DNA of 64,000 bases from NCBI GenBank assembly GCA_963704655.1, contig OY969927.1, forward strand, positions 192,001 through 256,000, read 5' to 3'. Shown in pieces: positions 34,023 to 44,709 of the stretch. This stretch comes from an uncultured Candidatus Babeliaceae bacterium (GTDB lineage Bacteria; Babelota; Babeliae; Babelales; Babelaceae). Below the pieces are notes generated by a model. The model made no database searches, was not told where the DNA came from, and was given only the letters and a program-made list of their open reading frames with translations. A program made the position numbers and the translations under genes. Each line of letters begins with the position of its first letter. The stretch's first letter is position 1.

Positions 34023-34099
34023 GCGCCTGTAGCTCAATTGGATAGAGTGCCGGACTTCGAATCCGTAGGTTGCAGGTTCGAGCCCTGCCAGGCGCACCA
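34023..34099 (+). tRNA. tRNA-Arg(TCG)
   Basis: GCGCCTG/CAGGCGC acceptor stem, anticodon loop CTTCGAA, GCAGG-TTCGAGC-CCTGC T-arm, CCA. Confidence 0.93.
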
Positions 34100-34182
34100 T
34101 CTTTCGCTTATCCGGGGCTTCCGCCTTGGCAAGCTACAGATGGCAGGCCAGTTTTAAAAAATAAAATATTAGTGAGTAATTC

Positions 34183-34440
34183 ATGATAGAAGAAAGAAAA
34201 CTCAAGATAGCTGAAGCTCTTAAGGACAAGGGCGTGAAATTGCCATGTCCTCGCTGTGGTGGATTAAATTTTGAAGTCGTAGATCAAACGGTGCTATCAA
34301 TTAATGATAATTTAAATGTTATAAAATTAGGTGGTCCGTCTGTACCCGCAGCTTTAGTAGCTTGCTCACATTGTGGATTTATTACATTCCATTCATTGGG
34401 AGTTTTAAATTTAATGCCCAAAGATGAGAATATACAATGA
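34183..34440 (+). CDS. Small zinc-ribbon protein (cassette 1)
   Basis: CPRC...CSHCG. Confidence 0.75.
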   Translation: MIEERKLKIAEALKDKGVKLPCPRCGGLNFEVVDQTVLSINDNLNVIKLGGPSVPAALVACSHCGFITFHSLGVLNLMPKDENIQ

Positions 34441-34721
34441 ATTCCAAAGAGCCTGAAATTCATATTAATACTGCAGGTCCTGCTAACAAAAAAAGTAAGT
34501 TTGATCCTTCTATGCATCCTGGGGTTTTGGGTAAATTTTTTGGTGCTATCGAAAATGCGACTACTAGTATTAGCGGTTTAGTCGTTATTCTATTGATTGT
34601 AATTGCAACTTTAATTACATTTGTAGAAACAAAAGTTGATGCTACTGATTATTGGAAAAGTATTGTGTTGCCGACTGTTACAGCGCTGTTCGGATATCTT
34701 TTTGGAAAGCGTCCTAAGTAA
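34437..34721 (+). CDS. Small two-TM membrane protein (cassette 1)
   Basis: ATGA overlap with the upstream gene; two hydrophobic helices; C-terminal GYLFG. Confidence 0.7.
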   Translation: MNSKEPEIHINTAGPANKKSKFDPSMHPGVLGKFFGAIENATTSISGLVVILLIVIATLITFVETKVDATDYWKSIVLPTVTALFGYLFGKRPK

Positions 34722-34722
34722 A

Positions 34723-34820
34723 TAGATTGCAGGCCTGTCCTCTGTAGCGTGGTGCGTGAAACGCACTATTTCGCGTAAGGGGATTCGAGCCCTGCCAGGC
34801 GCACCATCTTGCGCTTATCC
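34723..34820 (+). repeat. Direct repeat of the tRNA-Arg(TCG) 3' end (attR-like), split by a family B/C repeat
   Basis: TAGATTGCAGG[34734-34783]TTCGAGCCCTGCCAGGCGCACCATCTTGCGCTTATCC vs 34066-34113. Confidence 0.9.
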
Positions 34821-34822
34821 AT

Positions 34823-34872
34823 GCCGCTCACCCTGAGTGTTTTGCGAAAGCAAAATGTTTCGAAGGGCGGGA
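34823..34872. repeat. Family A palindrome variant
   Basis: CCGCTCACCCTGAG-TGTTTTGCGAAAGCAAAATG-TTTCGAAGGG. Confidence 0.75.
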
Positions 34873-34923
34873 CCCATGGTTAGGAATGAAAAATCTAAGT
34901 TCCAAGCCTAAATTCACGAAAAA

Positions 34924-35940
34924 TTGAAGGTCTTTATGGAAAAATTTACTCAAAAAATTATGATTCTATTGGCATCAATTGCCTGTCTTGTATATGCAAC
35001 AGCTGCGCCGTTACATGCAGTGGATGAAGCATCTCTTAAGAGCTTAGAAAGCAACGCTTGGAAACATGCTTATGCGGATCGAAAACATCTAGCGCTTGCA
35101 ATATTCAAAAAAGCAGCGCGTCTTGGTAGTTGGCAAGCTGCACAATTTTTGGCAAATGAGTATAATGAAGAGCATTTATTGAGTGAGTCAGATGCTGACC
35201 ACGCAGGTAAAAAATTTGCCGAATTGGCAAACACTCATGAGAAGCGATTAGATGAAAAATATCCTTTTGTTTCGTCCACACCTGTTAGCAGAAGGCATCT
35301 TCTAGAAGATCGCATTCAAAAATTGAGAGCAATACAGATTGCCCGTATAACACCATGGTACAAGGAGGTCTTGGAAGAATTTCCCAGGGCACAACAGCCA
35401 GAAACAAGTGCATTATATATTTTTAATACACTTGTTGGGTCATCTGATTCGGGCGCTGGAAAATGTAGGCGAGGGCATTTGTTTGAGATAGCCGTACCCC
35501 ACGCTTCTAGAGAAACTTTACAAGAGATATTTAAAAAAATGAAAGAGCGTCATAAGAGGTGGACTGGACATTATTCATCGTCTTTTAAAGATCACATTAA
35601 AGTGAGTCGAAGTGTAATGCGGGGATTGGATTTAGCAGCTAGAAAGAACGATGCTATTGATGAACTTAAAGATGTTTATGGAGGGGCATTTTTTTACCTT
35701 TACTATGATTGGATTTTGGGTCGCGACCAGCTGAGCGATTTTGGAGCAACCCATGATGACTTTGACGAGGAGGACATGGTTTGTGCGTTCCAGGAGTTGT
35801 ATTGTAATTATGCAAAACTAGATAAGCAAGACGCACAAGATACTATGTTTGGTATTTTGGGTTTTTATATGAAAGAAAAAGATCACAGAATTAGTGAACC
35901 TGTTTCAAAGATATTTAAATTTGTTAAAAATGGAATGTGA
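34924..35940 (+). CDS. Secreted hypothetical protein with a Sel1-like helix (cassette 2)
   Basis: Signal peptide; ALAIFKKAARLGSWQAAQFLA. Confidence 0.75.
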   Translation: MKVFMEKFTQKIMILLASIACLVYATAAPLHAVDEASLKSLESNAWKHAYADRKHLALAIFKKAARLGSWQAAQFLANEYNEEHLLSESDADHAGKKFAELANTHEKRLDEKYPFVSSTPVSRRHLLEDRIQKLRAIQIARITPWYKEVLEEFPRAQQPETSALYIFNTLVGSSDSGAGKCRRGHLFEIAVPHASRETLQEIFKKMKERHKRWTGHYSSSFKDHIKVSRSVMRGLDLAARKNDAIDELKDVYGGAFFYLYYDWILGRDQLSDFGATHDDFDEEDMVCAFQELYCNYAKLDKQDAQDTMFGILGFYMKEKDHRISEPVSKIFKFVKNGM

Positions 35941-36010
35941 AATTTCATTATATGCATGCGATACTGAAAAACCCAAAAAGAATTTTTCATAAAAATTGTC
36001 TAATAACAAC

Positions 36011-36083
36011 CAAGTTGATATTATCGTAAGTAAAGTTGCAAAATAGTGCGCGAGCGCACCAGATAGACCGATAAGGCGCACCA
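36011..36083 (+). repeat. Cassette-boundary repeat R1 (arm + family C hairpin + tRNA-like 3' end)
   Basis: CAAGTTGATATTATCGTAAGTAAAGTTGC-AAAATAGTGCGCGAGCGCACC-AGATAGACCGATAAGGCGCACCA; nearly identical to R4. Confidence 0.85.
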
Positions 36084-36118
36084 AGTTTCAAGGACGATTT
36101 TTTATAGGTTAGGGATCG

Positions 36119-36694
36119 ATGATGCAAAACATTTTCATTTTATTAGCGCTTTTGCTATGCGAATTATATTCATACGCACAACCAAATGATCGAGGGGATA
36201 GTTCGTTGCATTTGGCTGTTATGGGAAGTGGGCCAGAAGCAGTAAGAGTTGTTGCAGAATTGATTGATAATGGTGCGGACATTGAAGCGCGAAACAATTT
36301 TGGTCAAACGCCCCTATTTTACGCAAGTTTATTCTGGGAAATGGATGACTCAAAATTACAAATAATTACTAATCTTTTATTAAAGGGGGCATCGTTACAA
36401 ACAAAAATCAAAGATGAAACTTGTTTTGAGGCTCTTAAGAAAGTTTATTTATTTAAGAGCGAAGGGCAAGTTGCGGAGCTTTTATCATTCTTCAATCGAG
36501 GTGAAAAGGATTTACAAATATTTCTCTCTTTTTTAAACGAACAGAAAGAACCAGCAATAAGAAAAGATGCATATAGAGAAATTATATTGAAATATCATCC
36601 TGATAGAGAGGTAAAGTATAGAGAATTACGCAATTTTATAACCCAAAAAATAATTAATTCCTATCGGCAAGCTACAGAGGGCGATCCAGTTTAA
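36119..36694 (+). CDS. Secreted ankyrin-repeat protein with a C-terminal J-domain-like HPD segment (cassette 3)
   Basis: RGDSSLHLAV, GADIEARNNFGQTPLFYA and AYREIILKYHPDR. Confidence 0.85.
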   Translation: MMQNIFILLALLLCELYSYAQPNDRGDSSLHLAVMGSGPEAVRVVAELIDNGADIEARNNFGQTPLFYASLFWEMDDSKLQIITNLLLKGASLQTKIKDETCFEALKKVYLFKSEGQVAELLSFFNRGEKDLQIFLSFLNEQKEPAIRKDAYREIILKYHPDREVKYRELRNFITQKIINSYRQATEGDPV

Positions 36695-36712
36695 CAAACA
36701 GGATGATTTTTT

Positions 36713-37150
36713 ATGTATAAAAGTTACATCTTCGTTCTTGCAATATGCACATTCTCATATTTATTTGCAACGGATCAAACAATTAATTTAAGGCTGCTGC
36801 TTGACGGTAAAGTTCGGGGTGCGAATATGATTGAGGCGATTTGTAAGGCTTCGTCTCACTCCCCATTGGCTGCCGCAGTGAGTGAAAAGAAAACTGTTGC
36901 AGTTGCCATAAGGCTGCGAAACAATGCATTAGATATTCGTTGTTTTGACACAGCCACGCCACCAGAATATATAAGCCTTATTGGAGAATATTGTTCCGCG
37001 TACCGCTCACTTTATCTAAATAAAGATATGATTACGTTGCGCTCATCAAATTTTGATTCAGAGAATCAGCTCGTTATTATTGGTTTAGCAAATAATGGCA
37101 AAGAACTACGCCAAGTTTATTCTGAAGAAAAATATGCTGTTCAAGATTAA
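36713..37150 (+). CDS. Secreted hypothetical protein (cassette 3)
   Basis: Signal peptide; AGGA RBS. Confidence 0.65.
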   Translation: MYKSYIFVLAICTFSYLFATDQTINLRLLLDGKVRGANMIEAICKASSHSPLAAAVSEKKTVAVAIRLRNNALDIRCFDTATPPEYISLIGEYCSAYRSLYLNKDMITLRSSNFDSENQLVIIGLANNGKELRQVYSEEKYAVQD

Positions 37151-37251
37151 TCATTTATTTCTGGGCCCTCTTAATATTCGAACTTCTATAAAATTATTTT
37201 TATAAATCTTGGTAGTATGGGTTATGAATATAACAATTGCCTGATAGCGAA

Positions 37252-37305
37252 CAAGTTGATATTCTTGTAAAAGAAGTTACTAAGATAGCCCGATAGGTAG
37301 CACCA
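37252..37305 (+). repeat. Cassette-boundary repeat R2
   Basis: CAAGTTGATATTCTTGTAAAAGAAGTTACTAAGATAGCCCGATAGGTAGCACCA, followed by a family B palindrome to 37369. Confidence 0.8.
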
Positions 37306-37582
37306 TATTGCGCTCTTTTAGAGCTACCTTCTTGCACTAAAGTTGCAAAGGACAGGCAGATGGCAGGCCATCCTCTTGTTTTCCAATCAAGTTACGAAAA
37401 TTTTGCACGAATAGAGAGGAACCAGGTGTCAGAATGGCAATTTACCTACATGGGGAATATTCTTGAGTACATGCATATTGGAAAATCAACAAATTTTTGT
37501 TCTTTACTCCTTGTTTATATAATCCAATTGTTATAAACTTTATAAGTTCATTTTTGTATAAACCCTTTATTCTAGGTTAAAC

Positions 37583-38245
37583 ATGAAAAAACTTATGTTC
37601 TTAATGACATTCGTAATGGTATCAAACTCTCTGGTAGGAATGGCGTATCTTACCCTTGCCACAGGAGAGCCAGTGAGCCTTGAACAACCAGATGGTACTG
37701 AATTTTCAGCGGTTGACATCTCACTCATGTTTGAATCCCATGCAAAACGTGTGTATGAAAATTTTCATGTTGACGCTGCGGTGCTAAGAAATACAAAATT
37801 TTTGGTGTCTTCTCATAAAGACTTCGCCCAGGTAGAGAAAGTTGACGATGGGAGAGCTTGGTTTTTTAAGCAAGCTGGGGAACTCGTACGATTGGTGAGA
37901 GGAAAAGATGGTTCTAATTATGTGGTACTTTCGCCAGCGATGTTAACTTGGTATGATGCGGGTCATTTTAATCATAATAATAGTACCGTGAGCTATAATG
38001 CATTCTATCTTTTTGAATTGTTGTCTGTTGCGCGAGGATGTACATTTGCCGATGAAGAGTTTGGCGGGCCAGATTATCTGGCAAAAAGATATAAGTTTGC
38101 AGTAGAAAGGTTTTCTTCTGAAGGCCTTAAGGGATTGCAAGAAAGCTTTGAGAGTAGCAAGGAGATAGTTTCTGGTTATCAGGGCGTGCCTGAACTGCTT
38201 GCTCAAGAGCTGGCAAAGCGCAGGATGTCAGCCGATAAAGAATAA
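37583..38245 (+). CDS. Secreted hypothetical protein (cassette 4)
   Basis: MKKLMFLMTFVMVSNSLVG-M signal peptide. Confidence 0.75.
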   Translation: MKKLMFLMTFVMVSNSLVGMAYLTLATGEPVSLEQPDGTEFSAVDISLMFESHAKRVYENFHVDAAVLRNTKFLVSSHKDFAQVEKVDDGRAWFFKQAGELVRLVRGKDGSNYVVLSPAMLTWYDAGHFNHNNSTVSYNAFYLFELLSVARGCTFADEEFGGPDYLAKRYKFAVERFSSEGLKGLQESFESSKEIVSGYQGVPELLAQELAKRRMSADKE

Positions 38246-38412
38246 AGGGAATTATTATGGATCATCTACCATTGTACCTATAAAAAACCATTTAAACTTC
38301 AGCTTTTTCATATTTTTTAAATCTATGCCACAGATGAACGTAACGAGCTTAAGGTATTCGGTATGGCTGCGAGCAGCTGACGGATAGCGTAGATTGTGCT
38401 ACTATCTATAGA

Positions 38413-38445
38413 GAAGTTGCGACAATAGCCCGATAGAGTGCACCA
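38413..38445 (+). repeat. Cassette-boundary repeat R3 (shorter match)
   Basis: GAAGTTGCGACAATAGCCCGATAGAGTGCACCA, followed by a family B palindrome to 38475. Confidence 0.75.
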
Positions 38446-38542
38446 TACTTCGCCAAGGCTTCGTATGGCGAGCCAGCCTTTTTACGGAATGACAGGCAAA
38501 TCATAGTTCTTTGTTTTTTTGAAAATTCTGAGGAAAATAATT

Positions 38543-38917
38543 ATGAAACAATTTTTTCTTTTTCTTGCGATTATGCCAATTGCATTGCTAGCCATGGAGC
38601 CAAATAATCATGCCTCTCTCGGACTAGTTGAGCATTTTGCTATAATGCTCAGTGCAGGTAGTCAATACACCGAGCGCACATTGGATAATTTAAAATCAAA
38701 ACGCTTGGAAAGTCTCGCTGAGATGAAACAAAAGCAAGCAATACCAAAAATTATAAATCAATTAGAAACATGTGCTGAAAATGATAAGCTAAAAAGCCGG
38801 GTGCAATGCCAAGTAGTTTATGATTGGTTCATTTCAGAGCTTCGAGCCCAAGGATATTTTACAAATGTACCTGTGGGTGGGGAATTTACTCAAAAAGTAA
38901 TGGAAGCCATTGAATAA
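38543..38917 (+). CDS. Secreted hypothetical protein (cassette 5)
   Basis: GAGG RBS; MKQFFLFLAIMPIALLA-MEP signal peptide. Confidence 0.7.
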   Translation: MKQFFLFLAIMPIALLAMEPNNHASLGLVEHFAIMLSAGSQYTERTLDNLKSKRLESLAEMKQKQAIPKIINQLETCAENDKLKSRVQCQVVYDWFISELRAQGYFTNVPVGGEFTQKVMEAIE

Positions 38918-39057
38918 TTTGCTTAGATTTACTTACCCTTATTAATAAAAATTGGCGAGAGCCAGAGTACAAACTTCAAAAACGTGGGCTAAATTTAAAG
39001 TTTTTTTCAAGCTTGAATGGCTTTTAAGCCGTTAATAGAAATTGTTTAATTGCAAGT

Positions 39058-39129
39058 AAGTTGATATTATCATAAGTAAAGTTGCAAAATAGTGCGCGAG
39101 CGCACCAGATAACCCGATAGGGTGCACCA
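39058..39129 (+). repeat. Cassette-boundary repeat R4
   Basis: AAGTTGATATTATCATAAGTAAAGTTGC-AAAATAGTGCGCGAGCGCACC-AGATAACCCGATAGGGTGCACCA, followed by a family B-like hairpin to 39163. Confidence 0.85.
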
Positions 39130-39293
39130 GTCATTTCCTTTCAGGGGAAATGCCTGGCAGGCCAGTCTCTTTAATCAACAAATTTTATATAAAAAAATTG
39201 AAAATTACGCGCCCGTAGCTTCCACCTTCGTTAAAACTATGGTGGACAGGCAGTTGTTTAAAATAAAATCTTGAATACTATAGTATTTATAGC

Positions 39294-39370
39294 GCGCCCG
39301 TAGCTCAGTAGGATAGAGCGACAGTTTCCTAAACTGTAGGCCACTGGTTCGAGCCCTGCCAGGCGCACCA
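39294..39370 (+). pseudogene. Chimeric tRNA-Arg: CCT 5' part joined to the TCG 3' end
   Basis: First 59 nt match 41428-41370 (2 mismatches); 3' end GGTTCGAGCCCTGCCAGGCGCACCA is identical to tRNA-Arg(TCG); mispairs in the T and acceptor stems. Confidence 0.85.
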
Positions 39371-39545
39371 GGCTTCGCTCTTACGAGCTTCGCCTGGCAT
39401 GCCAATTTCTTAAATGACTTTTTTTGGAACAGTAAACTTGAGATAATTAAAGCGAAGACTGTCCGGCGTAGCTTCTTTTTTATATAAATTTTTTATGAAC
39501 TATTCAGCGAAGCCTGGACTAATTTAAAAAAATAAAGTGATTTCT

Positions 39546-39788
39546 ATGTATTGTGTGTATATCCTTCGTTCAATTAATTTCCCGGACCAATTATATGTTG
39601 GCTGTACAACAAACTTGAAAAAGCGTTTATCTGACCATAATTGTGGTACGACGTCCCATACTGATAAATTTAAGCCATGGGAATTGGTAATGTATTTGGC
39701 ATTTAATAGCAAAGAAAAGGCTGTTGAATTTGAAAAATATCTAAAATCACATTCAGGTAGGGCCTTTAGAGATAAGAGACTTTTATGA
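39546..39788 (+). CDS. Solo GIY-YIG nuclease family protein
   Basis: YCVYILRS...LYVGCTTNLKKRLSDHN...TDKFKPWELV...EKYLKS. Confidence 0.92.
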   Translation: MYCVYILRSINFPDQLYVGCTTNLKKRLSDHNCGTTSHTDKFKPWELVMYLAFNSKEKAVEFEKYLKSHSGRAFRDKRLL

Positions 39789-39818
39789 TTCAATGCTCAT
39801 AGTCCGTCAAGAAAGTAT

Positions 39819-40655
39819 CTATCTCTTTACATCTAAAATATAACGATCTACGGGTTTTACTCGAACAAAACCAACCTCTTCATAAAGTTTTACCCCGCTA
39901 TGGGTTGCTTCCAATATAGTGCGCGGGATTTGTAAGGCTGCAGCACGGGCTACAAGTGTTGCAAGCATTTTGGTCGCTAAACCCTTATTGCGTGCATGCT
40001 CAAGAGTCGTGACATCTTTAATTTTTGCATACTCTGAAGTGCACAACAGACCTCCTGTTGTCACTAACGCACCATCTTGATAAATTCCATATAATTCGTT
40101 GCGTGCACCTGCTGGCATATCATCTATGCTGTTTTCCATACTAATGCGCAATGCATCCACAAGTTGCAGGTTTTTCACTCCATAATTTGTATAAACAACA
40201 TTTAACCAGGTACGTACTTCTTGTTTTGTAATAGGCACAACATCTTGATCTGCGGTTTTTTGAGCACCTTGATAGAGCATGAGCATTAAGGGAAGATGTC
40301 TAAATCCTGCGCTTTTTAAATGCGCAATTAATGCAGCATGTTTTTTATCGTCAGCACGCCAGTGGATTGGCACATTATGCTTGCGCACATAAGCAGTCAC
40401 TTGCGCAATATCTTGTTCCATCTGTTTAGGAGTAGACTGATCATAGCGCGTTATGATGTTTTGCCCGTTTGGCGGTACTCCAGGTTTCCACCAGGTCATA
40501 TGATCACGTTCATCTCGGGTTAGATGTGACTGCTGTTGAAGGGCATCATCAAAAGACTGGTTATTATACAATTCAGCCAACTCAAACTCGTTGCTATGCG
40601 CAAAGTGAATTGTTAACATGGTCATGAGAATCACGGTAATTCTTTTTAAAAGCAT
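39819..40655 (-). CDS. GNAT acetyltransferase with a signal peptide
   Basis: VTTLEHARNKGLAT and LEATHSGVKLYEEVGF. Confidence 0.82.
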   Translation of the reverse strand: MLLKRITVILMTMLTIHFAHSNEFELAELYNNQSFDDALQQQSHLTRDERDHMTWWKPGVPPNGQNIITRYDQSTPKQMEQDIAQVTAYVRKHNVPIHWRADDKKHAALIAHLKSAGFRHLPLMLMLYQGAQKTADQDVVPITKQEVRTWLNVVYTNYGVKNLQLVDALRISMENSIDDMPAGARNELYGIYQDGALVTTGGLLCTSEYAKIKDVTTLEHARNKGLATKMLATLVARAAALQIPRTILEATHSGVKLYEEVGFVRVKPVDRYILDVKR

Positions 40656-40774
40656 TCTTTACCTTTTTTTCTCAATGATAGATGAAATTTTATGTGTATA
40701 ATGTTGTATTCATATTGTATTTGAAGAGTAATTCAAATAACAAGTAATTGTTTAATTCTAAACTATTTTAATTA

Positions 40775-41299: not shown

Positions 41300-41351
41300 T
41301 AAATTTCCTAGTTAAGGGGTGTAAAAAAGACTTTTATGTAGTAGCAAAGAC

Positions 41352-41428
41352 TGGTGCGCCCGACTGGAATCGAACCAGTGGCCTACAGTTTAGGAAACTG
41401 TCGCTCTATCCGGCTGAGCTACGGGCGC
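41352..41428 (-). tRNA. tRNA-Arg(CCT), intact
   Basis: GCGCCCG/CGGGCGC, anticodon loop TTCCTAA, ACTGG-TTCGATT-CCAGT, CCA. Confidence 0.95.
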
Positions 41429-41466
41429 AGTATTTCTTTTATATAGAGTATATTATACTTATAGTT

Positions 41467-43266: not shown

Positions 43267-44709
43267 GTGGTTAACCAGATTTGGCAGGAATTTTTAAAGA
43301 TTGCGCGTGAAGAGGCAGGGAGCCCGGTTGTAGAGACCTGGTTTAAGGCCGTTTCGTGCCTTTCGTGGGATTATTCCAAAAAGACCATTTATTTAAAAGC
43401 TCCAAATCAGTTTGTTAAAGAGTGGATTATAAAAAATTATACTCATCTTTTACATAACCATCTGAGTCGTCTTCTAAATGAAGAGTCGGTTCATGTGCAA
43501 TTTGTTGATCAGATGCCACAAGCAGAAGAGATAAAAAAACATAATCCTCAACCACAGATTATTCCCGCTCATGTTATACCCGGTATGCAACCCATTTCGA
43601 TGTCTGTGGCTACGGGCCATTCGCGACATGATCTGGTAAAAAGCTCAATGCGTACCACAGTAGCACGTGTTGATAAAGCGCAAGTTCGCCCTGGACTCAA
43701 TGAAACACACACCTTTGATACCTTTGTGGTAGGGCCGAGCAACTCGCTTGCCTACGCCGCTGCTATGGCTGTAGCTGAAAAGCCGGGAATGTTATATAAC
43801 CCGTTTTTTATGTATGGACCATCAGGATTAGGTAAAACGCATTTACTCCACGCAATTGGCCAGAGTATAAAAAAAGAAAATAAAAAAGCGATTATAGTAT
43901 ATCAGACTGCAGATCGTTTTGTGCAAGAATTTATCCATGCTATTCGTTTTAATAAAACACATCTTTTTGAGGCAAAATATAAAAATATCGATGTTCTTTT
44001 AATGGACGATATCCAATTTATTTCTCATAAAGAACAGACACAAGAAGCATTTTTCCATATTTTTAATACACTGCATCAGGCACAAAAACAGATTGTTTGC
44101 ACCAGTGATGCATTGCCCGGTGACATTGTTGGTTTAGCTGCTCGGATGCGTTCCCGCTTAGAATGGGGCCTTGTGGCAGATATTTCTATGCCTACGCTAG
44201 AAACGAAAATTGCAATTGTTAAAAAAAAGGCTGAAATTCATCATGAACCGATTTCAGATGATATTGCTGAACGTATAGCACGTTCAGTAACCTCAAGTAT
44301 TCGTGAACTTGAGGGCGCTCTTATTCGCGTTCTTGCTTGTGCATCATTAACACGACAACCTATAACACAAGAGCTTGTTGATAATGTGCTTTTTAAAAAT
44401 AGCTCACACCAGGCGCGTCAGCAAATAGATTTACCAAAAGTCGTTCGTTCTGTGATGAGTTATTTTAATGTATCACTTGCAGAATTGCGTTCTGAAAAGC
44501 GGGACAAAGAGATTTCCCATGCGCGCCATATGGCCTTTTATTTAATGAAAAAGCATACTGGCAAATCTCTTAAAGAGATCGGTGCTTTTCTAGCGCGTAA
44601 AGATCATTCTACCGTATTGCACGCCTATGAAAAGATTAATCTTATTCGTCAAAACGACGTTCAACTTCAACATGCATTGCAAGAGCTAGAGCGCACATTA
44701 CAAAGCTAA
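43267..44709 (+). CDS. dnaA: Chromosomal replication initiator protein
   Basis: FDTFVVGPSN, YNPFFMYGPSGLGKTHL, DDIQF, QEAFFHIFN, SRLEWGL and KDHSTVLHA. Confidence 0.98.
   Translation: MVNQIWQEFLKIAREEAGSPVVETWFKAVSCLSWDYSKKTIYLKAPNQFVKEWIIKNYTHLLHNHLSRLLNEESVHVQFVDQMPQAEEIKKHNPQPQIIPAHVIPGMQPISMSVATGHSRHDLVKSSMRTTVARVDKAQVRPGLNETHTFDTFVVGPSNSLAYAAAMAVAEKPGMLYNPFFMYGPSGLGKTHLLHAIGQSIKKENKKAIIVYQTADRFVQEFIHAIRFNKTHLFEAKYKNIDVLLMDDIQFISHKEQTQEAFFHIFNTLHQAQKQIVCTSDALPGDIVGLAARMRSRLEWGLVADISMPTLETKIAIVKKKAEIHHEPISDDIAERIARSVTSSIRELEGALIRVLACASLTRQPITQELVDNVLFKNSSHQARQQIDLPKVVRSVMSYFNVSLAELRSEKRDKEISHARHMAFYLMKKHTGKSLKEIGAFLARKDHSTVLHAYEKINLIRQNDVQLQHALQELERTLQS

Follow-up and report, generated by a model that had tools for sequence, protein, structure and literature searches.

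Transfer RNA (tRNA) genes are classic landing sites of integrase-driven islands, and Slx1 is a structure-specific nuclease that cuts branched and stem-loop DNA. The closest published system to the locus described here is formed by the Ssn nucleases, which cut single-stranded DNA (ssDNA) at flanking hairpins named NTS/SRM, as reported for SsnA of Neisseria meningitidis (Chenal et al., Nat Commun 2025, PMC11893778). SegB of phage T4 recognises a 27-bp site with a conserved tRNA T-stem-loop motif, and homes (PMC2330249). Bacterial Slx1-like proteins have been treated by Dunin-Horkawicz et al. (2006) as vertically inherited repair proteins, and in the available sections of that paper a linkage of the Slx1-like cluster to tRNA genes is not mentioned, tRNA entering only via a TrmH fusion (PMC1564403). 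Here, we analysed a window of 64,000 nt (bases 192001-256000 of the genome contig) from an uncultured Candidatus Babeliaceae bacterium, whose genome is a single contig of 1,298,077 bp (38% G+C, 96% complete, 39 tRNA genes and one transfer-messenger RNA (tmRNA) gene), and in particular an 80-amino-acid (80-aa) GIY-YIG nuclease gene together with the hairpins around it, which an earlier note on this DNA had called family B palindromes and had linked to the gene as those of a candidate mobiliser. We find that the gene and these palindromes are modules of one unit, which begins immediately 3' of the CCA of a tRNA or tmRNA gene. On balance, we lean towards reading this unit as a selfish nuclease-plus-hairpin element that may spread among tRNA ends by homing-like break-and-copy. 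A tRNA-end nuclease-hairpin unit of this kind is apparently widespread and undescribed; in open-access papers and bioRxiv, we found no description of a GIY-YIG gene/hairpin element anchored to tRNA CCA ends.

The gene (39546-39788 including the stop, forward strand) starts 175 nt downstream of tRNA-Arg(CCT) (39294-39370) and encodes a single-domain protein of the Slx1-like branch. The longer open reading frame (ORF) at 39537-39788 (+) would give 83 aa from a GTG; the start at 39546, giving 80 aa, was preferred because all close homologs use that ATG. The protein matches the Pfam GIY-YIG family (PF01541, E 5.1e-18, 65.6 bits against a curated cut-off of 22.6) and no other domain. Among 20 aligned family members, which share 63-81% pairwise identity, 27 of the 80 columns are invariant, including Y5, Y17, R27, H31 and E63, residues whose catalytic roles we assume from the literature on I-TevI and UvrC, and no Asn after E63 is invariant. 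Judged from these conserved positions, the catalytic core is intact. The AlphaFold2 model (pLDDT 96.6) has its best solved Foldseek matches in Slx1 nuclease domains (34-40% identity, and 29% for a plant Slx1 homolog), with further fold matches to UPF0213 proteins, UvrC and the catalytic domain of I-TevI, and a sequence search of solved structures returned 1zg2 (E 2.8e-9) and Slx1 7cq2 (E 3.1e-9). The branch carries a C-terminal motif, YLKSxSGRAF. By analogy with Ssn and Slx1, the protein is most likely an Slx1-like or Ssn-like hairpin-specific nuclease. Its closest homologs are labelled Candidatus Babeliales, Dependentiae or TM6 in the sources, and the family is extensive, with 3,190 clusters (50% identity) reaching E≤1e-10, its best 80 loci coming from Dependentiae, many Alphaproteobacteria, Bdellovibrio-like bacteria, candidate-phyla bacteria, Verrucomicrobiota and Bacteroidetes. 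A search of NCBIfam with the protein gave no family, PHROGs gave a single weak match of unknown function (E 0.0021), and the best PADLOC match reached only E 0.0082.

The nuclease had been described in the earlier note as solo, which is correct for its single domain but not for its number, as the genome has two more family members in addition to six other small GIY-YIG matches and UvrC. The three members each stand behind a tRNA, namely the window copy, a copy (genome 1291162) that starts 55 nt behind tRNA-Glu and to which the window protein is 50% identical, and a degenerate copy (genome 1292088) approximately 700 nt beyond. A different small GIY-YIG family is present in five copies (genome 767678, 488381, 474676, 482674 and 375561), none of which adjoins a tRNA; the window protein is 31% identical to a member of that family, whose C-terminal part resembles the stretch encoded by the SsnA E64A primer (PMC11893778).

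The spacer between the CCA and the start codon holds a GC-rich, multi-hairpin module of about 100-180 nt, in the order hairpin A, small palindrome, arm B and hairpin C. The stem of hairpin A pairs the CCA and the three bases behind it with their three complements and a TGG; a small TGGC..GCCA palindrome follows, and arm B is generally the perfect complement of the 5' arm of hairpin A, including the bases right after the CCA. In the window, all of these lie on the forward strand: hairpin A at 39368-39397, its first three bases being the CCA of the tRNA, paired with the TGG at 39395-39397; the small palindrome TGGCATGCCA at 39395-39404; arm B at 39452-39461; and hairpin C at 39461-39519, with its 5' arm at 39461-39472, an AT-rich loop and its 3' arm at 39507-39519. 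Arm B of the window copy is the complement of a hairpin A 5' arm of the CA-GTC-TTCGC type, as found behind tRNA-Cys, and does not fit its own hairpin A. The stretch 39445-39474 is 100% identical (blastn) to the trailer of tRNA-Cys (genome 667079-667050), which lies 435 kb away and is a complete gene-less A-B-C module, and 39506-39517 is a perfect 12-nt complement of 39368-39379.

The four family B palindromes of the earlier note are present at the places it had given, and two of them exceeded 200 shuffles in DNA fold energy, namely 39368-39397 (-9.8 kcal/mol, z -2.7, 1/200 shuffles as good) and 39127-39157 (-8.8 kcal/mol, z -2.2, 5/200), both starting at CCA, whereas 39221-39246 (z -0.5, 55/200) and 39461-39519 (z -0.74, 47/200) did not. 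Despite an energy no better than that of shuffles, hairpin C is kept across phyla with compensatory changes. In an alignment of 24 compact non-redundant loci, out of 28 selected, the consensus structure comprises 23 pairs with 96.0% of cells paired, a value favoured by the structure having been predicted on the same alignment, against 90.1% for shuffles (0/500 reach the observed value) and 29-41% when the partners were slid by 1-3 columns. Compensatory changes occur in nine pairs, the pairing between the 5' arm of hairpin A and arm B is kept, the bases after the CCA covary with their partners, and one pair in the outer helix of hairpin C is C-G in 11 and U-A in another 11 of the 24 sequences. 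A second family of repeats, abundant and genome-wide (with units such as CCTGAGCGAAGTCGAAGG; the most frequent 11-mers reach 59 copies), sits inside the loops of several tRNA-end hairpins, for example behind tRNA-His, tRNA-Pro, tRNA-Asn and tRNA-Met (trailers at genome 497861, 498064, 166334 and 907650).

The association with tRNA ends extends across genomes. In the best 80 of 552 relatives, obtained by searching one genome per species, a tRNA or tmRNA on the same strand ends 89-435 nt upstream of the gene in 66 loci (median 134.5); an upstream tRNA on the opposite strand occurs in 0/80, and a tRNA within 600 nt downstream in 3/80. The tRNA and tmRNA genes used are of 22 kinds, with tRNA-Ala(GGC) in 30 of the 66, largely in Bradyrhizobium, Rhizobium and other Alphaproteobacteria. 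Among the remaining 14 loci, hairpin A directly follows a CCA-ended tRNA-like fragment in 12, and the other two are at contig ends. The earlier note had proposed to look for enrichment of hairpins and tRNA fragments beside homologs, and these counts bear it out. A second sample of 40 loci from the same class, taken in rank order with enough flank required and with 450 nt upstream examined, gave a complete tRNA upstream in 27 and a tmRNA-type 3' end, cut off by the 450-nt limit, in six, while CCA-ended fragments are present in at least five of the other seven (L130, L137, L144, L154 and L155), the rest being L127 and L148.

The hairpins, too, are found at tRNA ends when they are counted independently of the gene, by a strict sequence pattern with the same pattern backwards as control. 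The source genome, in which we also inspected 90 nt behind every tRNA gene, has 25 pattern matches against one in the control. Twenty of the 25 are at called tRNA or tmRNA ends, of which the genome has 40 in total, and three more follow CCA-ended tRNA- or tmRNA-like fragments; variants of the hairpin were seen by eye behind four further tRNAs (Leu-GAG, Asn, Lys-CTT and Glu). Hairpins of this kind accompany most tRNA genes of the genome. In three other genomes, 17/20 matches begin at the CCA of a called tRNA. The earlier view of the hairpins as REP-like dispersed repeats therefore did not hold, as they are instead fixed to tRNA-like CCA ends. Its observation that family B copies are densest here was confirmed, with three of the five strict matches of the window within 37303-39403 and the variant at 39127 as a fourth. 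Elsewhere in the genome, a tmRNA 3' fragment with its own hairpin (genome 971258-971322) duplicates the end of the hairpin-bearing tmRNA gene some 170 nt upstream of it.

Gene and hairpins also occur together across 121 genomes of the class. The 76 genomes with the gene have a median of 6 hairpin matches (mean 7.9) and the 45 without it a median of 1 (mean 1.9), with a control mean of 0.4-0.5, so that hairpin count follows gene presence, a correlation which the earlier note had put forward as a check. Carrier genomes have 1-9 gene matches, several of them with stops. In a genome of the same genus, G059 (94% complete), the gene is absent and the pattern has 0 matches; the 31 distinct tRNAs of this genome have the same 3'-terminal bases but plain, AT-rich trailers, with decayed hairpin relics behind Asn, Val-TAC, Tyr and Ser-GGA. 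This comparison bears on an explanation at the RNA level, in which the hairpins would be processing or termination signals of tRNA 3' trailers and the protein an RNase or a regulator of tRNA maturation. Such a device would agree with the pairing of the trailer with the CCA end, with the compensatory changes, which are expected of an RNA structure too, with the co-orientation of gene and tRNA in 66/80 loci, and with the RNA role that the authors proposed in view of the TrmH fusion in the Slx1 cluster (PMC1564403). However, the same tRNAs do without hairpins in G059, hairpins also stand behind dead tRNA fragments, no T-run terminators were found after the hairpins, and the closest solved relatives of the protein are DNA nucleases, so that we regard an RNA-level device as quite improbable.

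The tRNA in front of the window gene bears a scar of recombination. As the earlier note had recognised, the tRNA-Arg(CCT) at 39294-39370 (+) is a chimera, which was supported by ARAGORN, alignment, blastn and Rfam: 39294-39352, the 5' two-thirds, is 96.6% identical to a second tRNA-Arg(CCT) at 41352-41428 (-), whereas the part from T-loop to CCA, 39346-39370, matches the 3' end of tRNA-Arg(TCG) (34023-34099) at 100% identity, the junction being at GGTTCGA in the T-loop, from 39346. By eye, the alignment shows mismatches that the swap has left in both T stem and acceptor stem, and the chimera scores 55.2 bits with Rfam against 71.5 for the intact tRNA-Arg(CCT); at gathering scores, Rfam found nothing in the window besides five tRNAs. 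The tRNA-Arg(TCG) with this type of 3' end is followed by a gene-less hairpin A trailer (34097-34149; whole feature 34023-34149, +), and the intact tRNA-Arg(CCT) (ARAGORN, Rfam), which is inverted relative to the chimera, has a trailer that retains the hairpin-A 5' arm only. Together, the tRNA-Arg(CCT) copies make up an inverted repeat of 96 nt (39289-39384 / 41338-41433, 86% complementary), which encloses a 2-kb segment with the GIY-YIG gene, a gene for a GNAT acetyltransferase and an ORF of 174 aa. In a contig from another organism, 41343 is fused to 39385, so that the intact tRNA-Arg(CCT) runs straight onto the 3' arm of hairpin A; this joint suggests an inversion or an alternative arrangement of the 2-kb segment.

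Further such scars were seen at tRNA ends, among them the stretch 39445-39474 shared with the distant tRNA-Cys trailer. A search for RNA runs covering 39200-40700 gave none, and contigs from four DNA runs gave low, patchy cover of the locus, with two informative pieces, one of which is the joint named above. One contig from another organism matches the window over 39346-39788 only, that is from the T-loop to the stop, with 25 differences, where flanks of less than 85% identity would not show. This shared block and the T-loop junction of the chimera are consistent with a putative non-reciprocal copying of the gene and its flanking markers. Between the source genome and G059, homology ends exactly at the CCA of tRNA-Glu. 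In G002, a relative placed in a different family of the same order, the 3' half of a further hairpin A is directly joined to the gene's stop codon, and the hairpin loop thus has the look of a breakpoint. In L011, an uncultured Pseudomonadota contig, a direct repeat of about 80 nt that ends in a tRNA-Arg 3' fragment and CCA lies on both sides of the hairpin-gene unit, and looks like a duplication from insertion or unequal exchange.

The tRNA fragments that the earlier note had seen near the gene are likewise present. At 39113-39165 (+; blastn, fold), a CCA-ended tRNA-3'-like fragment (39113-39129) precedes a hairpin variant without the gene (39127-39157), with TGGCAGGCCA at 39155-39164, a unit 87.5% identical (blastn) to the trailer of tRNA-Lys(CTT); the same variant is found behind tRNA-Glu, ahead of the second family member. 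At 39208-39246 (+), a 13-nt copy of the tRNA-Arg(CCT) 5' start (39208-39220; 13/13 nt equal to 39293-39305) is joined to the weak hairpin 39221-39246, and a region upstream of tRNA-His matches 39215-39253 at 87.5% identity. A CCA-ended tRNA-3'-like fragment (38429-38445) with a gene-less hairpin A occupies 38429-38474 (+; pattern match at genome 230443-230474) and is 88.9% identical to the tRNA-Gln trailer. Another gene-less hairpin A after a CCA-ended fragment lies at 37303-37369 (+; pattern match at genome 229303-229369), and a further fragment, at 34784-34806, has the same Arg(TCG)-type 3' end, followed by a hairpin.

These pieces lie within a 5.2-kb array (34100-39293, +) between tRNA-Arg(TCG) and tRNA-Arg(CCT), in which six unrelated accessory ORFs on the same strand are separated by CCA-ended tRNA- or tmRNA-like 3' fragments and hairpins, and because of this arrangement tRNA ends look like gene-capture sites. 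The ORFs show no similarity to one another (all E>0.01), and tandem duplication was thus rejected as the origin of the array. One of them has ankyrin repeats, four of the other five are without a Pfam match, with the 94-aa ORF at 34437 lying outside the scan, and starts resembling signal peptides occur in at least three of the six. The syntenic locus of G002 has no array: behind syntenic upstream genes, tRNA-Arg(TCG) is followed after 308 nt by tRNA-Arg(CCT) and, a further 139 nt on, by the GIY-YIG gene; downstream of the gene, the only synteny seen was a 28%-identical oxidoreductase in L047. Ahead of each gene-less hairpin in the array is a repeated leader of about 70 nt that ends in two tandem CCA-ended acceptor-like pieces (36012-36083, about 37243-37305, about 38383-38445 and 39058-39129, with 93% identity over 72 nt between the first copy and the last). 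Besides the element, the window contains housekeeping genes, and the locus is probably near the replication origin, because dnaA (43513-44706) lies 3.7 kb downstream of the element.

Accessory genes and tRNA 3' fragments beside tRNAs are classic island scars, and the 25-nt 3' end of tRNA-Arg(TCG) at both 34075-34099 and 39346-39370 could be taken as one; the gene and repeats might thus be passive cargo, the debris of integrase-driven, tRNA-targeting islands. However, none of the 54 window ORFs of at least 110 aa matches a transposase or integrase family (Pfam E≤1e-5), and the Y1_Tnp/RAYT family (PF01797) has 0 matches in the whole genome, with a control search positive in 6 of 14 named genomes. 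The genome has two tyrosine recombinases (PF00589), which are Xer-sized (genome 389322 and 530369) and far from tRNAs and from the hairpin pattern matches. A classic integrated island was therefore rejected, even though tRNA 3' repeats are present. The earlier statement that no RAYT or integrase is visible in the window agrees with these searches, which for RAYT extend it to the genome, and a RAYT or integrase flanked by the same repeats, which that note had named as a finding that would refute its idea, was not found. In addition, plasmid or phage copies were not found (tblastn E≤1e-5), and debris would hardly keep a fixed distance and orientation to 22 kinds of tRNA and tmRNA across phyla, together with a conserved spacer. 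We therefore give passive cargo very little credence.

Building on the anatomy, CCA anchoring, covariation, co-occurrence and scars observed here, we propose that the nuclease, like the Ssn nucleases, would recognise its cognate hairpin in DNA that is single-stranded or has been extruded as a cruciform, and would cut at or near the junction of CCA and hairpin or in the hairpin loop. The break might then be repaired by copying from another copy, in a homing-like gene conversion, for which the universally conserved T-loop, acceptor end and CCA could supply the upstream homology and existing hairpins the downstream homology, with crossovers in the tRNA T-loop as in the window chimera. By this route, hairpins would spread and be homogenised, the nuclease gene would be copied too whenever the donor carries it, and copies would move between different tRNA genes, with chimeric tRNAs, tRNA 3' fragments and captured foreign segments as possible by-products. 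We infer the cutting by the protein, by analogy with Ssn and Slx1, as well as the copy repair and the use of T-loop/acceptor/CCA homology. The earlier suggestion that the nuclease acts on tRNA genes and drives cassette gains is in keeping with the chimera, the fragments and the 5.2-kb array, which fit action at tRNA ends, while cleavage and mobilisation stay putative.

The earlier note had suggested a role analogous to that of RAYT transposases, and the hairpins might be moved by transposition, the GIY-YIG protein excising and reinserting hairpins or the hairpin-gene unit under guidance of cleavage by CCA/TGG pairing, as in IS200/IS605. One TGG is the partner for which two CCA motifs compete, the CCA of the tRNA itself and the GCCA further downstream in the small palindrome, and covariation links the bases after the CCA to both partners; copies without the gene are more numerous than those with it, and in five of the 32 loci listed (L012, L030, L058, L073 and L082) hairpins flank the gene on both sides. 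GIY-YIG enzymes are hydrolases, however, and make no covalent DNA intermediate, because of which RAYT-like cut-and-paste by the protein alone is unlikely and strand transfer would require other factors. No target-site duplications were seen, and insertions are confined to tRNA-like CCA ends and bring sequence of the donor tRNA with them, an indication that the copying depends on homology. Thus, the RAYT analogy stands for the tight association of gene, hairpin and tRNA and not for the mechanism; we regard transposition as unlikely, and homing by break-and-copy as the more likely fit.

Several observations weigh against the proposed homing-like element. The association of gene and hairpin count in the 121 genomes has a one-sided Mann-Whitney p of 3e-11 that is overstated, because related genomes are not independent, and it has exceptions on both sides, as 9/45 gene-less genomes have at least four hairpin matches and 7/76 gene-bearing ones have at most one, although at least five of these seven have weak or interrupted gene matches by inspection. 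The commonest trailer type of the source genome (CCA-TCT...) adjoins neither intact gene, and cognate specificity is for this reason only putative. No clean pair of a filled and an empty site with homology resuming downstream was found; in the comparison with G059 at tRNA-Glu, homology does not resume within the DNA compared, which leaves the right border of the element undefined. The search of phage and plasmid collections mentioned above (tblastn E≤1e-5) produced no vehicle between phyla, and the protein is a catalytic core without a separate DNA-binding region. Finally, the gene site behind tRNA-Arg(CCT) is shared with G002, where the protein is 75% identical while the neighbours are only 47-67% identical, which suggests, from these comparisons, long residence and strong purifying selection at that site, unusual for a homing gene, and the 30 tRNA-Ala(GGC) loci, largely from Bradyrhizobium and other Alphaproteobacteria, look vertically inherited.

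Such persistence speaks for a host-serving, Ssn-like role, in which the nuclease would cut hairpin ssDNA and so control incoming or exposed ssDNA during transformation, replication or repair, the hairpins would spread otherwise and the gene would stand behind tRNAs only to borrow their strong promoters. SsnA modulates natural transformation through its repeats (PMC11893778), and the window protein is both highly conserved and long resident at the Arg(CCT) site. Furthermore, no promoter- or terminator-like site was found between tRNA and gene, and a promoter-like site is present ahead of the tRNA, at 39257-39284. Nevertheless, a host role leaves unexplained why the hairpins start at the CCA, pair with it and accompany tRNA 3' fragments, why tRNA ends are chimeric, and why the gene is present in 1-9 copies per genome, with decaying copies, a patchy presence and an absence in a genome of the same genus. 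As such, we consider a host-serving role possible but not probable, and retain the selfish, homing-like element as the reading we favour.

More tentatively, the unit might represent a new class of selfish element, in which an 80-residue nuclease finds its targets through the base-pairing of a DNA hairpin with the universal CCA, breaks and copies on the portable homology of T-loop, acceptor end and CCA, and captures foreign genes without an integrase, with the 5.2-kb array as an example. Since this homology is universal and portable, such an element could pass from any tRNA or tmRNA gene to another, and from phylum to phylum, but we consider the full scenario doubtful at this stage. If homing-like spread is true, it would constitute a second, integrase-free route by which tRNA loci are reshaped, giving rise to chimeric tRNAs, fragments and gene gain. 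As the family ranges from Dependentiae and candidate-phyla bacteria to Bradyrhizobium and Rhizobium, culturable hosts exist. A hairpin-specific minimal nuclease, if the protein is one like Ssn, would bring a new specificity to the enzymes that are sought as tools for single-stranded DNA. For annotation, "conserved tRNA trailers" may be better taken as selfish repeats than as processing signals.

With the Ssn family (cd10448) and its NTS hairpins, the window family has in common a single-domain GIY-YIG protein of less than 100 aa that is encoded beside its own conserved hairpins, many gene-less copies and an occurrence in many phyla, and the Tyr, Tyr and Glu of the window protein are at positions matching Y6, Y17 and E64 of SsnA, as given by the mutant primers (PMC11893778). 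It differs in that the window protein belongs to a different branch, with the YLKSxSGRAF C-terminus and its best solved matches in Slx1/UPF0213. The published SRM pattern (PMC11893778) is not enriched in the source genome (4 matches against 1-3 in five local shuffles) and has 0 matches within 600 nt of any of the nine small GIY-YIG genes. Furthermore, the window repeats are fixed to tRNA and tmRNA CCA ends, while in the main text of the Ssn paper the term "tRNA" occurs 0 times, and cleavage of ssDNA has been shown for Ssn (PMC11893778), whereas in the window family it is putative. By some criteria, Supplementary Data 4 of the Ssn paper assigns an ssnA homolog to Bradyrhizobium genomes, a genus in which the window family also occurs.

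The resemblance to REP/BIME (REPIN)-RAYT systems lies in short GC-rich hairpins that stand beside one small nuclease gene and track it in abundance; unlike in those systems, the enzyme is a GIY-YIG nuclease and not an HUH Y1 protein (PF01797 being absent from the genome), and the repeats are located at CCA ends rather than dispersed. With the prokaryotic Slx1-like/UPF0213 cluster, the window protein shares a minimal domain, the lack of a conserved C-terminal Asn and the nearest structures, Slx1 and 1zg2 (PMC1564403), whereas it differs from Slx1 in having neither a RING domain nor an Slx4 partner. As with SegB, a GIY-YIG gene lies beside tRNAs, the T-stem-loop motif of the SegB target has its counterpart in chimera junctions within the T-loop, and gene and flanking tRNA sequence are copied non-reciprocally, which we infer for the window element (PMC2330249). 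In contrast to Seg-type homing endonucleases, the window protein has no separate DNA-binding region for a long target; and in contrast to SegB, a phage homing endonuclease, the window gene is chromosomal, its product is an 80-aa catalytic core, and it is accompanied by a structured hairpin module that also exists in many gene-less copies (PMC2330249).

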